From positions 209 through 64,208 of the forward strand of contig DASUQC010000026.1 of the NCBI GenBank assembly GCA_036280745.1: a DNA stretch of 64,000 nucleotides. The letters run 5' to 3'. Within the stretch, counting starts at the first letter, position 1. Each line of letters begins with the position of its first letter. Origin of the DNA: Solirubrobacterales bacterium. GTDB taxonomy: Bacteria; Actinomycetota; Thermoleophilia; Solirubrobacterales; 70-9. Under the pieces are notes generated by a model. That model was not told the origin of the DNA and did no database searches. It saw only the letters and a program-made list of their open reading frames with translations. Position numbers and translations under genes: made by a program. Positions 1 to 7,220 of the stretch are shown here, one piece after another.

Positions 1-2179
1 GTTGACCAGAAACCGCTGGTAGCAGATCGGTGGCACACGCCCGTAGGTGCGGAATTGCCGATGGTCCTACCTTTCCTTGGGCCGCCGCCAAGAGCAACTC
101 CGGCACAACAATTCGGCGCTGATCGAGCGGCATTCTGGTAACCAGGTGACTAACCGTGCGCTCGCAGTCAGACCACTGCCAGCCCCACCAAGACTCATGC
201 GGACGTAGCCAACGCAGCAAGGACGCAACCAAGAGGGGATCGTAGTAGGAGCGGAACACCGCCGAAAGCTCAAAGACTCGATATTCCGGAGAGTCAGCAG
301 GCCGAATGGCCCGCGCCTGCTCCATGGCAGCTCCGACGGCCGCGAACGTCGCCCGCGCGGAAAGCGCCTCGCCGAATATCGCATTGGGCGTTAGGCGGTC
401 TTTATCTCGCGCACCCCAGAAGAGAGGAGGCCGTTTGCTTCCGCTGCCGCCCCCGCAAAGGCTCAATCTCTTTTCCCAGAAGGGGATAACGCTCTTCTCC
501 AGTTCTGAGTCGTCCAGCTCTTCCAACAACGCCAGCTCGTCACGCAAGGGAGAGCGGTCGGGAAGAAGCGTCTTCCATGCGCAAAACAGACGCCTCTGTC
601 CGTCCTGCTCATACCCATAGCCGTTGGTTAGGCCCTTCCACTCCCGCTCGGTTGCAGGGCGAGAGTGCATAACGAGGCCTTGGAGCGCAAAATCGGGGTC
701 TTCCTTCGCAGTCTGCACCCCCATAAGACCGCGCTGAAGCAGGACCCCAGTCACGGTACCGAGACAGAAGACAAGAACCCGCTCCGCATCCCTCACCTTC
801 TCCTTGACTTCGGCTGAAAGCCCATCCTCGTCGACAGGAAAGGGAAGGGCTTTAGCGCATCGGGGCGCGAGCGTGTGCCGCACTTTCCCCCAGAAGCTTT
901 TCCATCCTTTGAATTCAAGCTCGTGTTGGGGAACGAGGACAATGTCAGGATCGGAATCCAGGCCTTCGTCGTGGAGCGATTTCACGCGCTTAAGAAAGCC
1001 TTTCGACAGCTCGGCATGCGTAAGCATTCGCTCAATCCGAACTGCGATCGGCATTGAGGGCCGATGAAAGCCGATTGCGGGATGCGGGTGAGCCTCTACT
1101 CGCACCGCCTGTTTCGCGTCAGCAATTTCCCAATACTCCTTGTTGTCTAGAGCCTTGGCGACGGACGGGGTGGTCAGTCGTAGCTGTGAAGGGAGCATCT
1201 CGTCCAAGGTCCGCGGGCTGATTGGACAAATTCGGGCCTTGTCAGCAGACCGACAGAGGTCGCACGTCGTGTCGTAGAACCCTTCCTCGACAATGGGCAC
1301 TTCTCCCTGCAGGGGCGACCAGACGTCGATGGTCTCTGGCAAGGGGCTTGATGATTTTCGGATCATTACTTGAAGGCTCACCTGCTTCAGGCTTGGGCGC
1401 TTCCCCTCGAGGGCGGAAAACAGACGATCCAGAACGGCTCCAGTTGAGCTGATCGACAGAAGTGCGAGCACATTGCCCTCTGGGCTTGCCGCGAAATTGA
1501 TGGCGGAGTCGACATCTGCGGAGGTACGCGGATATTGATCTAGGACCGCCACAGGATTTGGCGTCAGACCGGCCCTTTCCATGTTGCGGATAGAGGCCAG
1601 GACGACGGGGTTGAGAACCCCCGTGTCAATTACAAATCCCATTCGGTCTACGAGAGACCGGTTCAGCCAGGACGCAAGCACTTCAGCGTCGCGCGGCTCG
1701 CGGATGGCATCAGCAAGACGAATGTACTCTCCGGCATGCTCCCCCGAGGGCAAGAGATAGTGGTAGGTCTTGGGGCGCCAGATCGCTTCACTCCACTCCA
1801 GAAGGGCCTGTAACTCGACTAAGCGGGCTTGGAGAAGGAGACGGGTGCGATCCCCTTTTGCTATCTCCGAGCCGTGCAGCAAGGTGAGGTCGGGCTCTTT
1901 CCCTACTGGCTGCTCCAGAAGGGTGATGCTCTGCTTCAAACCCCAACGCTCAAAGAGGCGCCGAGCCTCCTCGATGAATTCGTCGCGATTTTTCCCCGAG
2001 AGATCGGGCCGAATCACCATTGGGATGTATGGCGACCGGATCGCCGCAGAATCTACGCCTCGCAAGACCTCAAGATCCGCGGATCTATCGAGGTCCACAA
2101 GCACTACGGCATCACCCTTGGGCTCTCCGTGAACTCGCGTTCCAGATCCCCGGATTGAGACGTACGCGTCGCGGTTCAC
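1..2179 (-). CDS. Large hypothetical protein with two tandem phosphoribosyltransferase (PRTase)-like regions. It is 3'-truncated by the window edge (at least 726 aa) and absent from the supplied ORF track.
   Basis: Manual reverse-complement translation gives an uninterrupted frame from GTG at 2179 (in-frame stop at 2192-2194 just upstream) to position 1. It begins MNRDAYVSIRGSGTRVHGEPKGDAVVLVDL and ends, still open, at ...ATDLLPAVSGQ. Reverse stop triplets (tta/cta/tca) that I spot-checked fall only in the other two frames. There are two PRPP-loop-like signatures: NVLALLSISSTGAVL (1430-1471) and RVLVFCLGTVTGVLL (737-778). A Cys cluster TTCDLCRSADKARICP is also present. The start lies 25 nt downstream of the stop of the co-oriented gene at 2205-3155. 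Confidence 0.7.
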   Translation of the reverse strand, partial: MNRDAYVSIRGSGTRVHGEPKGDAVVLVDLDRSADLEVLRGVDSAAIRSPYIPMVIRPDLSGKNRDEFIEEARRLFERWGLKQSITLLEQPVGKEPDLTLLHGSEIAKGDRTRLLLQARLVELQALLEWSEAIWRPKTYHYLLPSGEHAGEYIRLADAIREPRDAEVLASWLNRSLVDRMGFVIDTGVLNPVVLASIRNMERAGLTPNPVAVLDQYPRTSADVDSAINFAASPEGNVLALLSISSTGAVLDRLFSALEGKRPSLKQVSLQVMIRKSSSPLPETIDVWSPLQGEVPIVEEGFYDTTCDLCRSADKARICPISPRTLDEMLPSQLRLTTPSVAKALDNKEYWEIADAKQAVRVEAHPHPAIGFHRPSMPIAVRIERMLTHAELSKGFLKRVKSLHDEGLDSDPDIVLVPQHELEFKGWKSFWGKVRHTLAPRCAKALPFPVDEDGLSAEVKEKVRDAERVLVFCLGTVTGVLLQRGLMGVQTAKEDPDFALQGLVMHSRPATEREWKGLTNGYGYEQDGQRRLFCAWKTLLPDRSPLRDELALLEELDDSELEKSVIPFWEKRLSLCGGGSGSKRPPLFWGARDKDRLTPNAIFGEALSARATFAAVGAAMEQARAIRPADSPEYRVFELSAVFRSYYDPLLVASLLRWLRPHESWWGWQWSDCERTVSHLVTRMPLDQRRIVVPELLLAAAQGKVGPSAIPHLRACATDLLPAVSGQ

Positions 2180-2204
2180 GCCTGCCCCACTTTAGAACGG
2201 TTGG

Positions 2205-3155
2205 TCAGACAGGAAGCGTAACGACTACCAGCGTACCTTCAACCTCCGCTGCTCTCGAAACCTCGGGTTTACCGTCGCCGGCACCCCGATGGCAGCGATA
2301 CTCGCCGCTGGCGATAAGCATCGCTGCGGACTGGGTCTCTTCAACGATCTCGTAGCATTTCGACAGGCCTATGCCGCGAGCGCGACCCCAGCCGGGAAGA
2401 TCGCCTGAGAGAAGATCCTCAAAAAGTTTCTTCTCAGAAGGAGCACTATCACCGAGCTTGGCCCTTAGAGTCGACTCAATTCCAGGGCCAGTATCGGAGA
2501 TACAAACAGAGAAAAAGCGACGGGCGTCTTTTTTCCAAAGCCTTATCCAAACCTGGGACTTGAGTGGAGCCCTATCGTCTAAGACAGCGTGCTCACGGAT
2601 GTTTCCAACAAGCTCACTCACAAAGAAGCCCGCTCGCTCCACAGCTCGCTGGACATGCTGCGCCCCCTCATCTTCTAGTCGCCTGAAGAGCCAGCGGCGA
2701 ATCAGCGAGCTGATACCCGAGTTGCCAGCGACGGGAAAGGTGAGATGTGGATCGTTGAACGTCGCGTATTCAGGTCCAGAAAGGCCTTCAGGACGCTCTT
2801 CATCGGGTGACGAGAAAAGAGCATTGGAGAAGCGGCGGGAGCCCGGGGTCCAGGTACGAGTCCACTCAGTTGACCGCAGACTTTTTGGCTCAACTGAGTG
2901 GGTTGCCCGGCTGATCGCAGATGCGAGACCTAAGCTTGGGAATGCGTCGGCCAGGTTGCCGCTGACGGTCACCCGGAGCGACCGCCTATCGGCAAGAAAG
3001 AACCAATGCAGGAGTCCGATCGCCATTGGTTCGAAAGCCGGCGGACTTTTGAGCTCAATGACGACATCGTCATCTGGCGCGACGAGATCCGACAGACTCC
3101 CGAAGGCGTCCTCAAGGCGTTCCTCGTTTAGTTCATCTATCGAAAACGTCGTCAT
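2205..3155 (-). CDS. GHKL-superfamily (HATPase_c, RsbW/SpoIIAB/histidine-kinase-like) ATPase or protein-kinase-like protein with an uncharacterised N-terminal domain, possibly STAS-like.
   Basis: The C-terminal half carries Bergerat-fold boxes: an N-box (ELVGNIREHA), a G1 box (ISDTGPGI) and a G2 box (GRARGIGLSKC). I place the start at the internal ATG at 3153-3155 (MTTFSIDELNEERLED). The 132 codons upstream in the track ORF 2205..3551 are low-complexity Arg/Ser/Pro text. Confidence 0.7.
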   Translation of the reverse strand: MTTFSIDELNEERLEDAFGSLSDLVAPDDDVVIELKSPPAFEPMAIGLLHWFFLADRRSLRVTVSGNLADAFPSLGLASAISRATHSVEPKSLRSTEWTRTWTPGSRRFSNALFSSPDEERPEGLSGPEYATFNDPHLTFPVAGNSGISSLIRRWLFRRLEDEGAQHVQRAVERAGFFVSELVGNIREHAVLDDRAPLKSQVWIRLWKKDARRFFSVCISDTGPGIESTLRAKLGDSAPSEKKLFEDLLSGDLPGWGRARGIGLSKCYEIVEETQSAAMLIASGEYRCHRGAGDGKPEVSRAAEVEGTLVVVTLPV

Positions 3156-3310
3156 AGGGCAGGCCTGTCGCCACGATCTCCGTTGGCTCCAAAATGGGAA
3201 AAACAGATTAATGTAGATGAGGCACCGGACGTAGTTTTCTCTCCCTCTGACTGCGCTATCTGCGACATCGCGCGCCTCCAGCCTCCTATTTGCTTCGGCT
3301 TCGCTGCTAA

Positions 3311-3326
3311 TGTTCTTTAAAGAACA
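3311..3326. promoter_or_regulatory. 16-bp perfect palindrome TGTTCTTTAAAGAACA in the divergent intergenic region; candidate operator.
   Basis: The sequence is exactly self-complementary. It is AT-rich and lies 9 nt upstream of the TTG at 3335, inside the 179-bp gap between the divergent genes at 2205-3155 (-) and 3335-4009 (+). Confidence 0.4.
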
Positions 3327-3334
3327 TCTCGATT

Positions 3335-4009
3335 TTGGAAGAGGCGTCGGACGTTGCGATGAACCAGGCAGAGAGCAAGACCGCAGTGGCGTCGACCGTT
3401 GCAGCCGAGCTGCGCGGGATCCGTGGGGCCGACCAAGCGGACTGGTTCCAAGGCCAGCTCGAGGTGGGCGTTGGTGAGCGTGGGCGCAAAGATGCTTTGA
3501 AGCAGCGAAAAGCAAAGTCTCCTTGGGACGCGAAGCGTGGTCGAAAGCCATCGGAGGGGGAGGATCGAGAAGATCTCGGCTCCGCTGACGGCTGGCTCTG
3601 GGACACCGTAGAAGTCGATCCGTTCAAGCTCGACCTCCAGCAGGCGATGGTCCTGCTACCAGGGGTTCAGGATCCGGAGAGCGTCCTTTCCCACCTCAGG
3701 TCGACTATCGGCGTTGTCAAGGTGTACGAGTCGTACGGCGGAGTCGGCGGCAGTTTGATCGTCGCCCACCTCGTCTACATGGGAGCCCAGCGACGGGGGC
3801 AGCTAGATGCTCGCCTTCGTGAGTTGCAGATGCCGTTCGAGTGGCTGGAGTTGCGTTCCGTAAGTCCCTCGCGCCCGTTTGAGGGCAGACCCGCCGCAGC
3901 GACCTGGGAAGCCTTGGCACAGCAGTTCGCCGAACTTGAGGGGCTCAAGCTGGAGCGAGTCAGCGTCAAGACGCCGCCCTGGCAGGAACATGCTTCGAAA
4001 CCAGGATGA
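3335..4009 (+). CDS. Hypothetical protein, an orphan transcribed divergently from the GHKL/PRTase-like operon.
   Basis: This is a 224-codon ORF (TTG at 3335, alternative ATG at 3359) with protein-like composition and codon pattern (for example VKVYESYGGVGGSLIVAHLVYMG and ATWEALAQQFAELEGLKLERV). No motif was recognised. It conflicts with the antisense ORF 3775..4296, which looks less protein-like. Confidence 0.45.
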   Translation: MEEASDVAMNQAESKTAVASTVAAELRGIRGADQADWFQGQLEVGVGERGRKDALKQRKAKSPWDAKRGRKPSEGEDREDLGSADGWLWDTVEVDPFKLDLQQAMVLLPGVQDPESVLSHLRSTIGVVKVYESYGGVGGSLIVAHLVYMGAQRRGQLDARLRELQMPFEWLELRSVSPSRPFEGRPAAATWEALAQQFAELEGLKLERVSVKTPPWQEHASKPG

Positions 4010-4339
4010 GGGTCACCTAGGTATCGAACCAAGGAAACGATTGCGATAGGAGGGTTGGTTTCGCTCGGCGATGACACAGGCCGGAGGTCCACGGACGAGC
4101 GCGGAGACCATGAGTAGGGGATCTGGACACGCTCACCGAAAACGACGACGTTCTCGGTTCCTGGAAGGGCAGCACTCCGCACCCTGATGATCTTGGGGCT
4201 CGCGGATCGGATCGCAGTCGATCGCCAAGCGCGGCATGCAGCATGATCATCAGCGATCAGCTCTTCCGGCTCGGTCAAAGCCGAACTGGCTGGCATTGGA
4301 GAATTTGATTGGCTCCGCTTGCGGAAATAGCCAGCCTCC

Positions 4340-4460
4340 GAAATGAGACAGAAATGAGACTCCGAGGCGGCGGAACCGTACGGAACGGCCAGAAGGGCAC
4401 GGAACGCGGGATCTGAGTCGGGACAGAAGGTTCCGCTCTGTAAAGCGAAAAACGCGGAAC
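4340..4460. repeat. Cluster of short repeats next to the tRNA 3' end: GAAATGAGAC twice in near tandem, and CGGAAC four times direct plus once inverted.
   Basis: GAAATGAGAC occurs at 4340-4349 and 4351-4360. CGGAAC occurs at 4371-4376, 4381-4386, 4400-4405 and 4455-4460. The inverted copy GTTCCG is at 4430-4435. No convincing ORF covers 4010-4479. Confidence 0.35.
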
Positions 4461-4479
4461 CTCAAGGAACAGCAAGGAA

Positions 4480-4575
4480 TGCGCCCGACGGGAGTCGAAC
4501 CCGCGACCTTCGGCTTGAAAGACCGACGCTCTTTGGGCCCCCGAAAGGACCCGTTGACCACTGAGCTACGGGCGC
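4480..4575 (-). tRNA. Atypical 96-nt tRNA-like gene. The anticodon loop CUUUCAA gives UUC, Glu by anticodon. The D-loop carries about 20 extra nt, so the isotype is uncertain.
   Basis: The reverse complement reads GCGCCCG TA GCTC [31-nt loop AGTGGTCAACGGGTCCTTTCGGGGGCCCAAA] GAGC G TCGGT CTTTCAA GCCGA AGGTC GCGGG TTCGACT CCCGT CGGGCGC A. It has a perfect 7-bp acceptor stem, a canonical T-arm with GTTCGA, and 5-bp anticodon and T stems. No CCA is encoded. Confidence 0.6.
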
Positions 4576-4670
4576 CTGTTGGCAATCGTAGCCGCGCGGG
4601 CTTGTTTGAGCGCTGCCGCCTCGCTGTCGCCTGACCGGGTGCTCTGCGGGCGGGCGGTAGTTTCCTGGCC

Positions 4671-5426
4671 ATGGACTTGGGGCTGCAGGATCGCGTCGCC
4701 CTGGTGATGGGCGCCAGCCGGGGCATCGGGCGCGGGATCGCCGGGGTGCTCGCTCGCGAGGGCGCCCGGGTCGCGATCGCCAGCCGCTCGCTCGAGCGCC
4801 TGGAGGAAGCAGCGGCCGAGATCGGCCCGCAGGCCACTCCCTTCGTCGCCGACGCCGCGGACACCGAGCGGATGGCCTCCCTCCCCGCCGAGGTCGCCGA
4901 CGCGCTCGGCCCGGTCGAGGTCCTCGTCCTCAACACCGGCGGACCGCCCTTCGGCGGCGCGCTCGACCACGAGCTCGACGAGTGGGAGCAGGCCTACCGC
5001 TCGCTCGTCCTCGGCCCGCGCGTCCTCGCCGGCGCCGTCGTCCCCGGCATGCGCGAGCGCGGCTGGGGCCGGATCGTCAACGTCGGCTCCCTCGCCACCC
5101 GCGAGCCGATCCCCGGCCTCAACCTCTCCAACGCCCACCGGATGGCCGCGGTCGGGTTCCTCAAGACCCTCGCGAGCGAGGTCGCCGGCGACGGGATCAC
5201 CGTCAACACCGTCGCCACCGGCCGCTTCGCCACCGAACGGCTCGCCGACCACACCGGGTCGCTCGCGGCGGCCGAAGAGGCGGCCCGCACGCAGGTCCCC
5301 GCCGGCCGCCTCGGCCATCCCGACGAGTTCGGCGACCTCGTCGCCTTCCTCGCCTCCGAGCGCGCCGCCTACGTCACCGGGACCGTGGTCCCGATCGACG
5401 GCGGCGTCCTTCGCTCCGCCTTCTAG
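4671..5426 (+). CDS. SDR-family oxidoreductase (FabG-like)
   Basis: 251 aa with an N-terminal Rossmann glycine motif (VMGASRGIGRGIA) and typical classical-SDR length. Confidence 0.88.
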   Translation: MDLGLQDRVALVMGASRGIGRGIAGVLAREGARVAIASRSLERLEEAAAEIGPQATPFVADAADTERMASLPAEVADALGPVEVLVLNTGGPPFGGALDHELDEWEQAYRSLVLGPRVLAGAVVPGMRERGWGRIVNVGSLATREPIPGLNLSNAHRMAAVGFLKTLASEVAGDGITVNTVATGRFATERLADHTGSLAAAEEAARTQVPAGRLGHPDEFGDLVAFLASERAAYVTGTVVPIDGGVLRSAF

Positions 5427-5698
5427 CCCGCCTGGCCGGCGCGCAGCTCGCCGGCGCGGATCCGCTCGGCCATCGCCTTCGACTCGTCGCGGTAGGTGGT
5501 CCCGTCCTCGAACTCGATCGTCGGGTACTTGCGCTGGCCGGAGAGCTGCTCCAGCTCCTCGCGCTTGCCGGGGCGCAGCGGCCCCTTCACCACCTCGTAC
5601 TCGACCCCCGCCTCGTCGAGCGCCTTCTGCACCCGCCAGCACGGGTGGCCGTCGTACTTCGCGAACATCACCGGGCAGCGGTGGAGTTTCACGGCCAT
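5423..5698 (-). CDS. Small thioredoxin-fold protein (glutaredoxin-like / GST N-terminal-domain-like)
   Basis: 91 aa with an HPC motif (DGHPCWRVQKALDEAG) and YPTIEFEDG. A paralogue lies at 37920-38222. Confidence 0.65.
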   Translation of the reverse strand: MAVKLHRCPVMFAKYDGHPCWRVQKALDEAGVEYEVVKGPLRPGKREELEQLSGQRKYPTIEFEDGTTYRDESKAMAERIRAGELRAGQAG

Positions 5699-5720
5699 GC
5701 GCCCACCCTAACGCCGGAAC

Positions 5721-7220
5721 TCAGCTCTCGCCAGCGATCTCGCGCATCGCCGGATAGATGATCACGTCGCGCAGCGTCTTCGCCCCGGTCATGATCATCA
5801 GCAGCCGGTCGATCCCCAGCCCGCACCCGCTCGCCGGCGGCATCCCGTATTCGAGCGCGCGCACGAACTCTTCGTCGTGGGGATGCGGATCGGCCTCCGC
5901 CCCCGTTTCCTGGCGTTCGCGCTGCTTGACGAAGCGCACCTTCTGCTCGACCGGGTCGTTGAGGTCGGTCCCGCCGCCGACGATCTCCATCCCGGCGACG
6001 ATCCCGTCGAAGGCCTCGCAGATCCGCGGGCTCTCCTCGTGCACCTTGACCAGCGGCCAGATGTCGATCGGCAGGTCGATGATGTAGGTCGGCTGGATCA
6101 GCTTCGGCTCGACCAGCTTCCCCTGCAGCGTGTCCACCACCCCGGCCCAGTCGTCGTTCTCGTCGACGTCGTCGCCGGCCGCCTCCGCCAGTTCGTCCCG
6201 GCTCGCCTCGTAGATGTCGAGCCCGGTCTCGCGCAGCAGCTCGTCGCGCAGACGCACCCGCGGCCAGGGCGCCGCGAAGTCGATCTCGACCCCGTCGCGC
6301 TCGACCACCGTCGTCCCCATCGTCTTCTCGACCACGCTCGCGACCAGCGTCTCGACGAAGCGCATCACGCCTTCGTAGTCGGCCCCGCCGACGAACATCT
6401 CCAGCATCGTGAACTCGGGGTTGTGCTGGGGCGACATCCCCTCGTTGCGGAAGAACTTGCCGAACTCGTAGACGTCCTCAAAGCCGCCGACGATCGCCCG
6501 CTTCAGGTACAGCTCGGTCGCCGTGCGCAGGAAGAGGTCGCGGTCGAGCGCGTTGTGGTGGGTGACGAACGGCCGCGCCGCCGCCCCCCCAGTGAGCCGC
6601 TGCAGGACCGGCGTTTCCAGCTCCACCCACCCCCGCGAGTTCATGTGGTTGCGGACCTCCCAGAGCAGCTTCGCCCGCTTCTTGAAGATCTCGCGCGAGT
6701 CCGCGTTCGCCATCAGGTCGAGTTCGCGCTGGCGGTAGCGCGTGTCGGGGTCGGAGATGCCGTGGAAGAGGTCGGGCGGATCTTTGAGAGCCTTGGCCAG
6801 CAGGAAGCACTCGCGCACGCCGATCGCCAGCTGCCCGCGCTTGGTCACGTGCAGCGGCCCGACAATCCCGACCAGGTCGCCGATGTCGAGCTCCTCGACC
6901 CGGTCGAACGCCTCGTCGCCGAGCACGTCGCGCCGCGCGTAGGCCTGGATCGACCCGGTCACGTCGCGGACGTCGAGGAAGGCGGTCTTGCCGTGCCCGC
7001 GCTTGCCGACGATCCGGCCCATCACCCGGTAGGTGAACTCCCCGTGCTCGCCCTCGCCGAGCGCGGCCGGGTCGTGCGCGGCCTCGATCTCCTCGACGTG
7101 GTCGCGCTCTTCGAAGGAGTGCGGGTAGGGATCGACGCCGGCCTCGCGCAGCCGCTCGACCTTCGCCCTGCGTTGCTCCTCGGTAGAGCCGGCCGTCTCG
7201 GCCGCGCGGCTATCGCTCAT
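5721..7220 (-). CDS. lysS: Lysine--tRNA ligase (class II)
   Basis: 499 aa with an OB-fold N-domain (GRIVGKRGHGKTAFLDVRD) and class II motifs (FFRNEGMSPQHNPEFTMLE, GCGLGIDRLLM). Confidence 0.95.
   Translation of the reverse strand: MSDSRAAETAGSTEEQRRAKVERLREAGVDPYPHSFEERDHVEEIEAAHDPAALGEGEHGEFTYRVMGRIVGKRGHGKTAFLDVRDVTGSIQAYARRDVLGDEAFDRVEELDIGDLVGIVGPLHVTKRGQLAIGVRECFLLAKALKDPPDLFHGISDPDTRYRQRELDLMANADSREIFKKRAKLLWEVRNHMNSRGWVELETPVLQRLTGGAAARPFVTHHNALDRDLFLRTATELYLKRAIVGGFEDVYEFGKFFRNEGMSPQHNPEFTMLEMFVGGADYEGVMRFVETLVASVVEKTMGTTVVERDGVEIDFAAPWPRVRLRDELLRETGLDIYEASRDELAEAAGDDVDENDDWAGVVDTLQGKLVEPKLIQPTYIIDLPIDIWPLVKVHEESPRICEAFDGIVAGMEIVGGGTDLNDPVEQKVRFVKQRERQETGAEADPHPHDEEFVRALEYGMPPASGCGLGIDRLLMIMTGAKTLRDVIIYPAMREIAGES

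Follow-up and report, generated by a model that had tools for sequence, protein, structure and literature searches.

The 64,000-nucleotide (nt) stretch analysed here, called the window throughout, stems from a Solirubrobacterales bacterium (GenBank assembly GCA_036280745.1, contig DASUQC010000026.1, positions 209 to 64,208 of the forward strand), and its first 4,479 nt belong to a horizontally acquired island, of which they form the end next to a tRNA gene, and hold a conserved cassette of three genes. Two of these, here named A and B, encode a protein with a GHKL ATPase/kinase domain and a large multidomain protein that contains a degenerate phosphoribosyltransferase (PRTase)-like domain. Judged by its occurrence in other genomes, the A-B pair is an obligate, uncharacterised two-gene module that moves between genomes and comes to lie in defence and mobile islands. 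Comparative genomics makes it a credible candidate for an undescribed, mobile conflict or defence module, a classification to which we would give about an even chance. The same idea had been put forward from the letters of the window alone; linkage, defence neighbours and foreign composition now speak for it, whereas the mechanistic part of that original prediction has come out weaker.

Linkage and genomic setting of the gene pair

Genes A (2205-3155; 316 amino acids (aa)) and B (1-2179, with a GTG start at 2177-2179) lie one behind the other on the minus strand, and 25 nt (2180-2204) separate the stop codon of A from the start codon of B, just as the tight operon had been described. We compared 31 loci from metagenomes and species-representative genomes, and in every locus in which upstream DNA is present a homologue of A precedes B on the same strand. 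The two genes are directly adjacent in 29 of them; in L010 (6847-12109) they are split by a 1.7-kb insertion with an opposite-strand open reading frame (ORF) of 442 aa, and the L017 sequence lacks the DNA upstream of B. A and B are, moreover, the sole families conserved in all loci, so that the co-occurrence which had been suggested as a check on the pair is borne out by every informative locus. At the called starts the gap between the two genes measures 7-11 nt in L001, L003, L035, L038 and L041 and 39-96 nt in L004, L032 and L033. The pair occurs in Solirubrobacterales, in many Acidimicrobiales, among them sponge-associated Poriferisodalis and Aldehydirespirator, and in one metagenome-assembled genome of the Burkholderiales, and its distribution is patchy, two motif patterns having matched only 25 of 185,579 species representatives. 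Three loci hold decayed or interrupted copies: besides L010 these are L029 (3669-11940), where insertions and a frameshift split both A and B, and L031 (9563-10279), where B ends after about residue 240.

The company that the pair keeps in other genomes is striking. In two Acidimicrobiales loci it stands beside genes of the Druantia system, namely directly beside DruE in L013 (12503-17323; E=3.5e-185) and beside DruA, followed by a HerA-like ATPase, in L022 (12730-17154; E=8e-113). Elsewhere it adjoins a Type ISP restriction-modification enzyme (L016, E=0), an HmaB/DUF1156 methylase (L028, E=0), a CHAT protease-like protein (L009), an Mrr-type nuclease (L033) or PIN toxins (L001 and L038), and in L004 it is accompanied by a DISARM-like set of an Eco57I/MmeI methylase, a helicase, MZB and PLD as well as by ThiF/Multi_ubiq, M78/HTH and transposase genes. 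A DDE-type transposase, recognised by a faint Pfam match, and a PD-(D/E)XK protein are found in L035. In L032, the closest long relative of the window locus (64-76% protein identity), an integrase and a tRNA-Ala gene flank the same three-gene cassette, and a tRNA-Met gene just 5' of the pair (L007) and a tRNA-Thr gene together with an integrase just 3' of it (L041) mark two further loci. Matches of the PADLOC models mad3, mad8, AriA and PtuA near the pair were not counted, as they derive at least partly from one conserved double-ABC ATPase; this protein, of 634 aa at 5509-7413 of L019 and with counterparts in L024, L030 and L031, is probably a housekeeping ABC-F-type protein and calls for caution in scoring such matches as defence. 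As a separate observation, an NA37 (YejK-like) gene and a DUF4917 gene precede the pair on the 2-Mb contig of L001 (6645-8818), amid hypothetical genes and a PIN/MazE pair; this arrangement may represent another uncharacterised module.

The island itself is set off by composition. Its G+C content is 0.587 in 1-4479 as compared to 0.710 in 4576-64000, which confirms the low-G+C first 4.5 kb of the original prediction, and all four 1-kb segments in 1-4000 (0.577-0.598) fall below each of the 59 segments from 5001 onwards (minimum 0.646). In 200-nt segments the value climbs from 0.57-0.62 to 0.74-0.78 over 4400-4800, the rise being confined to about 300 nt around 4500-4800. The G+C content at third codon positions (GC3) agrees: it amounts to 0.65, 0.58 and 0.71 in the three island genes and to 0.94-0.99 in the five genes beyond the border, which encode an SDR protein, a glutaredoxin-like protein, LysS, HemK and Lgt. 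The border is formed by a tRNA gene (4480-4575, minus strand; Rfam tRNA, 65.6 bits) whose 3' end faces the low-G+C side, which is the arrangement expected of a tRNA-integrated island. Taken together, the G+C break, the GC3 contrast and the orientation of the tRNA gene establish the compositional island as real. The tRNA is atypical in that its 96 nt include a 25-nt insertion in the D-loop, folding as a GGGUCCU-UUCG-GGGGCCC hairpin, and in that its anticodon is UUC (Glu) in the register of Rfam but Pro(ggg) according to ARAGORN; it may be functional, or it may be a hybrid remaining from integration. Nothing else was matched by Rfam in 1-6000, and scans for consensus promoters and terminators gave hits at chance level only.

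An independent Logan contig of 4,612 nt (L006), equivalent to positions -96 to 4515 of the window, covers the cassette. It ends 36 nt into the border tRNA on one side and 26 nt beyond the stop codon of gene B on the other, and these end points imply a break of the assembly graph at either edge of the cassette, for which heterogeneity among strains with respect to the island may be responsible. The 97 bases that L006 adds to the left of the window contain no repeat, and its two ends share none.

Domain architecture of the A and B proteins

Gene A encodes an N-terminal alpha/beta domain followed by a C-terminal GHKL domain (2208-2642, residues 172-316). The protein begins with MTTFS, and this start lines up with the N-termini of its homologues. 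Its N box (ELVGNIREHA, 2586-2615), G1 box (DTGPG, 2481-2495) and G2 box (GRARGIGL, 2364-2387), all recognised already in the original prediction, are conserved in 19 homologues, which keep N185, E188 and H189 invariant and retain D221xGxG225 and G257-L264. Pfam HATPase_c matches the protein with 31.1 bits (E=3.5e-07; cut-off 26.4), and with the AlphaFold2 model (predicted local distance difference test (pLDDT) 86.1; predicted TM-score (pTM) 0.89) Foldseek finds the ATP-binding domains of Hsp90, GyrB and SpoIIAB, the top target TM-scores of 0.54-0.58 falling on SpoIIAB. Gene A belongs to the GHKL/HATPase_c superfamily on all three counts, the Pfam match, the boxes and the fold.

Within this superfamily we infer a closer resemblance to kinases or ATP switches of the RsbW/SpoIIAB type than to GHL-type hydrolases, because the residue four positions ahead of the N-box Asn is Glu in the subclade of the window and Gln in most homologues and because the box reads N-x-x-E-H-A. 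What the A protein has in common with RsbW and SpoIIAB is that its GHKL domain is minimal, showing the pattern ExxxN..H in the N box and DxGxG in the G1 box and possessing a G2 box, and that DHp/HisKA is absent; no HisKA/DHp or Response_reg match was obtained in the island proteins, which speaks against a two-component sensor histidine kinase. Unlike them, however, it stays under the cut-off of the RsbW-type model HATPase_c_2 (16.2 bits, E=0.011; cut-off 27.4) and possesses an N-terminal domain of its own, 168 aa in length (2652-3155, residues 1-168), with conserved TWTPG, NPH and RRW motifs. Nor does the locus offer the cognate STAS antagonist or sigma factor of a partner switch: at E<=1 none of the three cassette proteins has a Pfam match to STAS or to a sigma factor, so that the classical partner switch originally envisaged finds no STAS partner here. 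A STAS-like nature of the N-terminal domain itself was considered, since the order of its secondary structure elements gave that impression, but is not supported, for its profile matched neither a STAS structure nor any Pfam family; profile searches of the PDB with the whole protein and with this domain likewise yielded no meaningful match. Both halves of A are retained even in Acidimicrobiales relatives of 30% identity. The GHKL half also matches the PHROG family phrog_3364 (function unknown, profile length 304; E=2e-11), and phages therefore encode similarly sized proteins with a related GHKL domain. Apart from the match of HATPase_c_2 below its cut-off, HATPase_c and phrog_3364, both for A, were all that Pfam, NCBIfam, PADLOC and PHROG returned for the three cassette proteins.

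Gene B, originally reported as an ORF of at least 726 aa, encodes 749 aa when the final 23 codons and the stop codon, which lie to the left of the window, are taken from L006; residues 1-726 are in the window. The window protein has no Pfam, NCBIfam, PADLOC or PHROG match. A word-indexed search with B returned 19 close relatives, and an exhaustive profile search reached 772 cluster representatives at E<=1e-3, 312 of them at E<=1e-30, with lengths mostly of 720-850 aa. B is a member of a sizeable family for which none of the libraries scanned (Pfam, NCBIfam, PADLOC and PHROG) has a model. The AlphaFold2 model has a mean pLDDT of 83.8 and a pTM of 0.56, and because of the latter value the domains are to be regarded as well modelled but their mutual arrangement as uncertain.

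The part of B that can be related to a known fold is domain 1 (1295-1864, residues about 106-295). With the model of B, Foldseek ranks orotate phosphoribosyltransferases (OPRTases; 1lh0, 1opr, 4ohc, 6taj, 2wns and 4rv4) first in the PDB and hypoxanthine-guanine phosphoribosyltransferases next, with probabilities of 0.9-1.0 and target TM-scores of about 0.4-0.5 for domain 1, and UMP synthases and PRTases come top for this domain among viral models. The fold is read off a predicted structure whose pLDDT is mostly 72-96, with a dip to 64 in the stretch 211-220. In the PDB, the domain 1 profile gave one sequence match, the OPRTase 4paw (E=0.33, not significant alone), in an alignment that pairs HYrLPSGeH...PRDAxVLAsWL with HFLLSSGFHS...PKLAEQLALEL. 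The HYLLPSGEH motif of the window protein (1736-1762, residues 140-148) corresponds to HFLLSSGFH of 4paw, and its H140 and H148 do not vary among 122 diverse members. On the Foldseek ranking and the 4paw alignment we conclude that domain 1, as modelled, carries a PRTase core fold of the OPRTase-like kind.

The catalytic signature of this fold is degenerate. At the position of the phosphoribosyl pyrophosphate (PRPP) loop, B retains a strand-loop-helix (NVLALLSISSTGAVL; 1430-1474, residues 236-250), and HMMER aligns the loop ILVCEDIITTG of 4paw to vlallsvsssG of domain 1. Where canonical PRTases have the acidic pair of the loop, B has Leu and Ser, a hydrophobic residue and S242 (LLSISSTG in the window, consensus LSVSSSG), and the S/T-G turn is all that is kept. 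In addition, we take the OPRTase lysines of the pyrophosphate site and the flexible loop to have no counterpart in B, going by an informal alignment with E. coli PyrE. Yet the pocket is highly conserved: five of the seven residues invariant in the 122 diverse B proteins fall in domain 1 (E122, H140, H148, W171 and G247), the near-invariant D185 and S242 lie there too, and S242 is fully invariant in the close set. Read from this residue pattern, the pocket of domain 1 is the most constrained part of B and incapable of canonical PRPP chemistry. The sequence libraries agree insofar as Pribosyltran and PRTase_1/2/3 of Pfam match neither the window protein at E<=1 nor any of 58 diverse homologues at E<=0.01, in which no other Pfam domain was detected either. 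The profile and structure searches originally called for have in this way returned HATPase_c, a GHKL fold and an OPRTase-like fold but no Pribosyltran, PRTase_1/2/3 or STAS match.

Domain 2 (554-955, residues 409-542; pLDDT 75-92) consists of Rossmann-like beta-alpha repeats and contains, besides an HxRP motif, the loop GTVTG (746-760), which forms a strand-loop-helix and was originally taken for a second PRPP loop (VLVFCLGTVTGVLLQ). It has no sequence match in the PDB by profile, and an hhalign test for internal duplication with six sub-alignments of B in local mode yielded no pair at a significant level; domains 1 and 2 came closest (P=0.057, not significant), with only the two loop motifs aligned. 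For this reason the proposed tandem of PRTase domains is half supported, domain 1 being OPRTase-like and domain 2 lacking comparable evidence.

The remaining layout of B, as drawn from the AlphaFold2 model, comprises an N-terminal alpha/beta domain (1865-2179, residues 1-105) with near-invariant D29 and R57, a conserved CxxC motif (C306 and C309; 1253-1264) in a poorly modelled linker (pLDDT <50 at residues 319-330), a small alpha/beta unit at residues about 340-408 and a helical C-terminal domain (2-553, residues 543-726 in the window and 543-749 in the full-length protein). The C-terminal domain has conserved motifs of its own (SPLxxE with the invariant E548, R571, FWG, RSYYD, LRW, WWG and ELLLAAAQGK), but a profile search of the PDB produced no meaningful match for it and no known fold or motif.

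The divergent third gene and its palindrome

The third gene of the cassette (3359-4009, plus strand, 216 aa) is transcribed away from A across a promoter region of 203 nt (3156-3358), and a spacer of 470 nt and low G+C content (0.585; 4010-4479), without a convincing gene, separates it from the tRNA. It was first described as an orphan behind a 16-bp palindrome. Neither statement holds: the perfect palindrome, ATGTTCTTTAAAGAACAT, is 18 bp long (3310-3327) and lies 31 nt upstream of the start of the gene, and nine homologues of the protein are present in the databases, among them an identical one and none with a Pfam domain. Its homologues stand divergent from the pair in L032 (76% identity), L004 and L034 (36-38%) and L035 (31%); the gene is conserved beside the pair in one subclade and is missing from most A-B clades. 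L032 has the very same palindrome in otherwise diverged intergenic DNA, and ATGTCC-N6-GGAC-like variants of it occur in L004 and L034. No DNA-binding domain was detected in the third gene, but because the palindrome is retained unchanged in the relative we read the two as regulator and operator. The third gene is probably a portable island regulator, with the 18-bp palindrome as its operator, and not a core component of the module.

Homologues of the third gene with 47-51% identity also occur without the A-B pair. One (L037, 3293-6724) is divergent from a DHO_dh-like gene, of the dihydroorotate-dehydrogenase family, and adjoins a phage integrase; the other (L036, 10001-10633) sits in an IS3/Mrr region. 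The family has the appearance of a portable island module with exchangeable cargo, and it is curious that a pyrimidine-pathway fold should again be found as cargo.

Relation to known systems and possible function

The pair matches no named system, as was originally supposed. None of the PADLOC-DB 2.0.0 profiles, including those of ShosTA, PsyrTA and retron-PRTase, recognised any of the three cassette proteins at E<=1, and full-text searches of the literature, by which systems named after 2023 (DefenseFinder updates, Ophion and DefensePredictor systems) were covered, turned up no description of a GHKL-plus-PRTase pair, paywalled papers and the newest DefenseFinder models being outside this scope. 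PRTase toxins are an established feature of ShosTA, PsyrTA and type III retrons, and ShosT is reported to disturb purine metabolism through PRTase and pyrophosphatase activity (PMC11961720). PRTase-based defence is also known in Ophion, and GHKL or kinase modules occur in other systems, such as the histidine-kinase-like AbrB of Ambrosia and an SLFN-Argonaute-GHKL fusion; neither of the latter is paired with a PRTase-like protein, which sets them apart from A-B. ShosTA resembles A-B in being made up of two genes on mobile DNA, one of them for a protein with PRTase fold. It differs in that the partner, ShosA, is DprA-like and not a GHKL protein, while the PRPP loop of B is without the acidic pair and the protein extends to 749 aa with four further domains. 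Likewise, type III retrons with a PRTase-like effector (such as Retron-Eco11), PsyrTA and OpnC of Ophion have in common with B a PRTase-like domain within an anti-phage system, but the island contains no reverse transcriptase, non-coding RNA, RecQ-like helicase, radical-SAM or PHP gene; Ophion is newer than the PADLOC set used and was compared by architecture only. None of these four systems has a GHKL partner. The bona fide OPRTases, finally (PyrE; 1lh0, 4ohc, 4rv4 and 4paw), share with residues about 106-295 of B the fold, the HYxLPSGEH motif and the strand-loop-helix at the PRPP-loop position, but they possess the acidic pair, and their domain is not embedded in a protein of 749 aa that escapes the Pribosyltran model.

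What, then, might the pair do? Tentatively, and with more doubt than confidence, we propose that A-B is an unnamed anti-phage system in which an OPRTase-derived pocket that has given up PRPP chemistry would serve as an infection sensor or as a new nucleotide-directed enzyme, gated by a GHKL kinase of the RsbW type. The proposal of a sensor or non-canonical enzyme follows from the loss of the acidic pair and, on our informal alignment with PyrE, of the lysines. The pocket, inherited from an OPRTase, would keep its phosphate-binding loop and the HYxLPSGEH motif and could bind a phosphoribosyl compound (PRPP, a nucleotide or a nucleotide altered by a phage) either to sense it or to carry out non-canonical chemistry on it. 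A, presumably co-transcribed with B, would hold B off or switch it on through ATP binding or phosphorylation, the output would be delivered by the other domains of B, namely the Rossmann-like domain 2 and the helical C-terminal domain, and the target would be phages or other mobile elements. As a specific mechanism, this sensor-switch scheme is rather unlikely to be right in its particulars.

Several observations weigh against a defence function or against the mobility that we ascribe to the pair. The pair lies in defence islands, where it adjoins Druantia, Type ISP, HmaB or DISARM-like genes, but it has housekeeping neighbours in L003 and in several Acidimicrobiales loci (succinate dehydrogenase, AMP-binding enzymes), and the association with defence is to be taken as qualitative, if striking. 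In four related Acidimicrobiales genomes the flanks of the pair are syntenic, so that it can be stably inherited, and tblastn with B against 72,556 plasmids and 50,697 phage records revealed no copy. A second occurrence of the tRNA 3' segment that could serve as an att repeat was found neither in the window nor in L006 or the fetched loci, and no integrase is visible in the window, beyond whose left end the contig continues for no more than about 1 kb. The GC3 of B falls below the flank median in 17 of 19 loci, but this comparison is biased, the flank genes having been chosen for high GC3 by a crude caller. Library and profile scans detected no recognisable toxin, nuclease or pore domain in B, and the sensor reading of domain 1 leans on a predicted structure and on alignments that are individually non-significant (E=0.33).

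Some of these points would be accounted for if A-B were an accessory regulatory or metabolic module of nucleotide or stress signalling, in which a kinase controls a sensor of PRTase fold and which rides on islands as a passenger with no part in conflict. The housekeeping contexts, the syntenic flanks and the want of a toxin domain fit such a module, and a degenerate PRTase pocket suits a sensor: in PurR of Bacillus and in PyrR the PRTase fold senses PRPP or nucleotides rather than serving bulk catalysis. That parallel is a working analogy only; a DNA-binding domain was found in neither A nor B, and an RNA-binding domain was not detected in B. Moreover, a patchy distribution, foreign composition, repeatedly pseudogenised copies and a position next to Druantia, restriction-modification, Hma and DISARM-like genes and integrases are hardly what a module of this kind leads one to expect, and we consider it unlikely. 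Alternatively, the pair might serve the mobile element itself in island maintenance or addiction, exclusion of competitors or control of excision. Integrases and tRNA genes beside the pair, the third-gene family that also adjoins an integrase with different cargo, and the breaks of L006 at both cassette edges are in line with this, but many loci have no integrase within 10 kb, most clades lack the third gene and the genes beside the pair belong for the most part to host-type defence systems, which leaves this explanation with little probability.

The original prediction had favoured a nucleotide-modifying or nucleotide-depleting effector, and a further reading makes A-B a toxin-antitoxin pair like ShosTA, with B as an active PRTase that depletes PRPP or nucleotides and A as its neutraliser. 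The PRTase fold that Foldseek assigns to B, the precedent of PRTase toxins in the systems named above and the tight two-gene operon on mobile DNA would all accord with it. The loss of the acidic pair to Leu and Ser throughout the B family argues in the other direction, as does the presumed absence of the OPRTase lysines in the same informal alignment with PyrE, and it is for this reason that we do not favour such an effector. In addition, the ShosT, PsyrT and retron-PRTase models of PADLOC do not match at E<=1, none of the 59 members of the B family examined matches Pribosyltran or PRTase_1/2/3, B is three to four times the size of a PRTase, and A is an ATP-binding enzyme and not a DprA-like antitoxin. 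We therefore give a ShosTA-like pair only a slim chance.

Should A-B prove to be a working defence system, it would add a new architecture to the few PRTase-based immune modules (ShosTA, PsyrTA, type III retrons and Ophion) and would be the first of them to have a kinase-like GHKL partner and a PRTase pocket without the catalytic signature. It would point to sensing rather than depletion of phosphoribosyl metabolites and would mean that signalling in the style of a partner switch and a fold of nucleotide metabolism have been jointly recruited into immunity, and this in Solirubrobacterales and Acidimicrobiales, lineages whose defence repertoire is almost unexplored. If the pair does not act in defence, it is still a well-defined conserved gene pair of unknown function, albeit of modest specialist interest. 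In either case our work provides a testable hypothesis for a family of several hundred clusters that has no Pfam, NCBIfam or PADLOC model and is largely confined to uncultured Actinomycetota, including symbionts of sponges.

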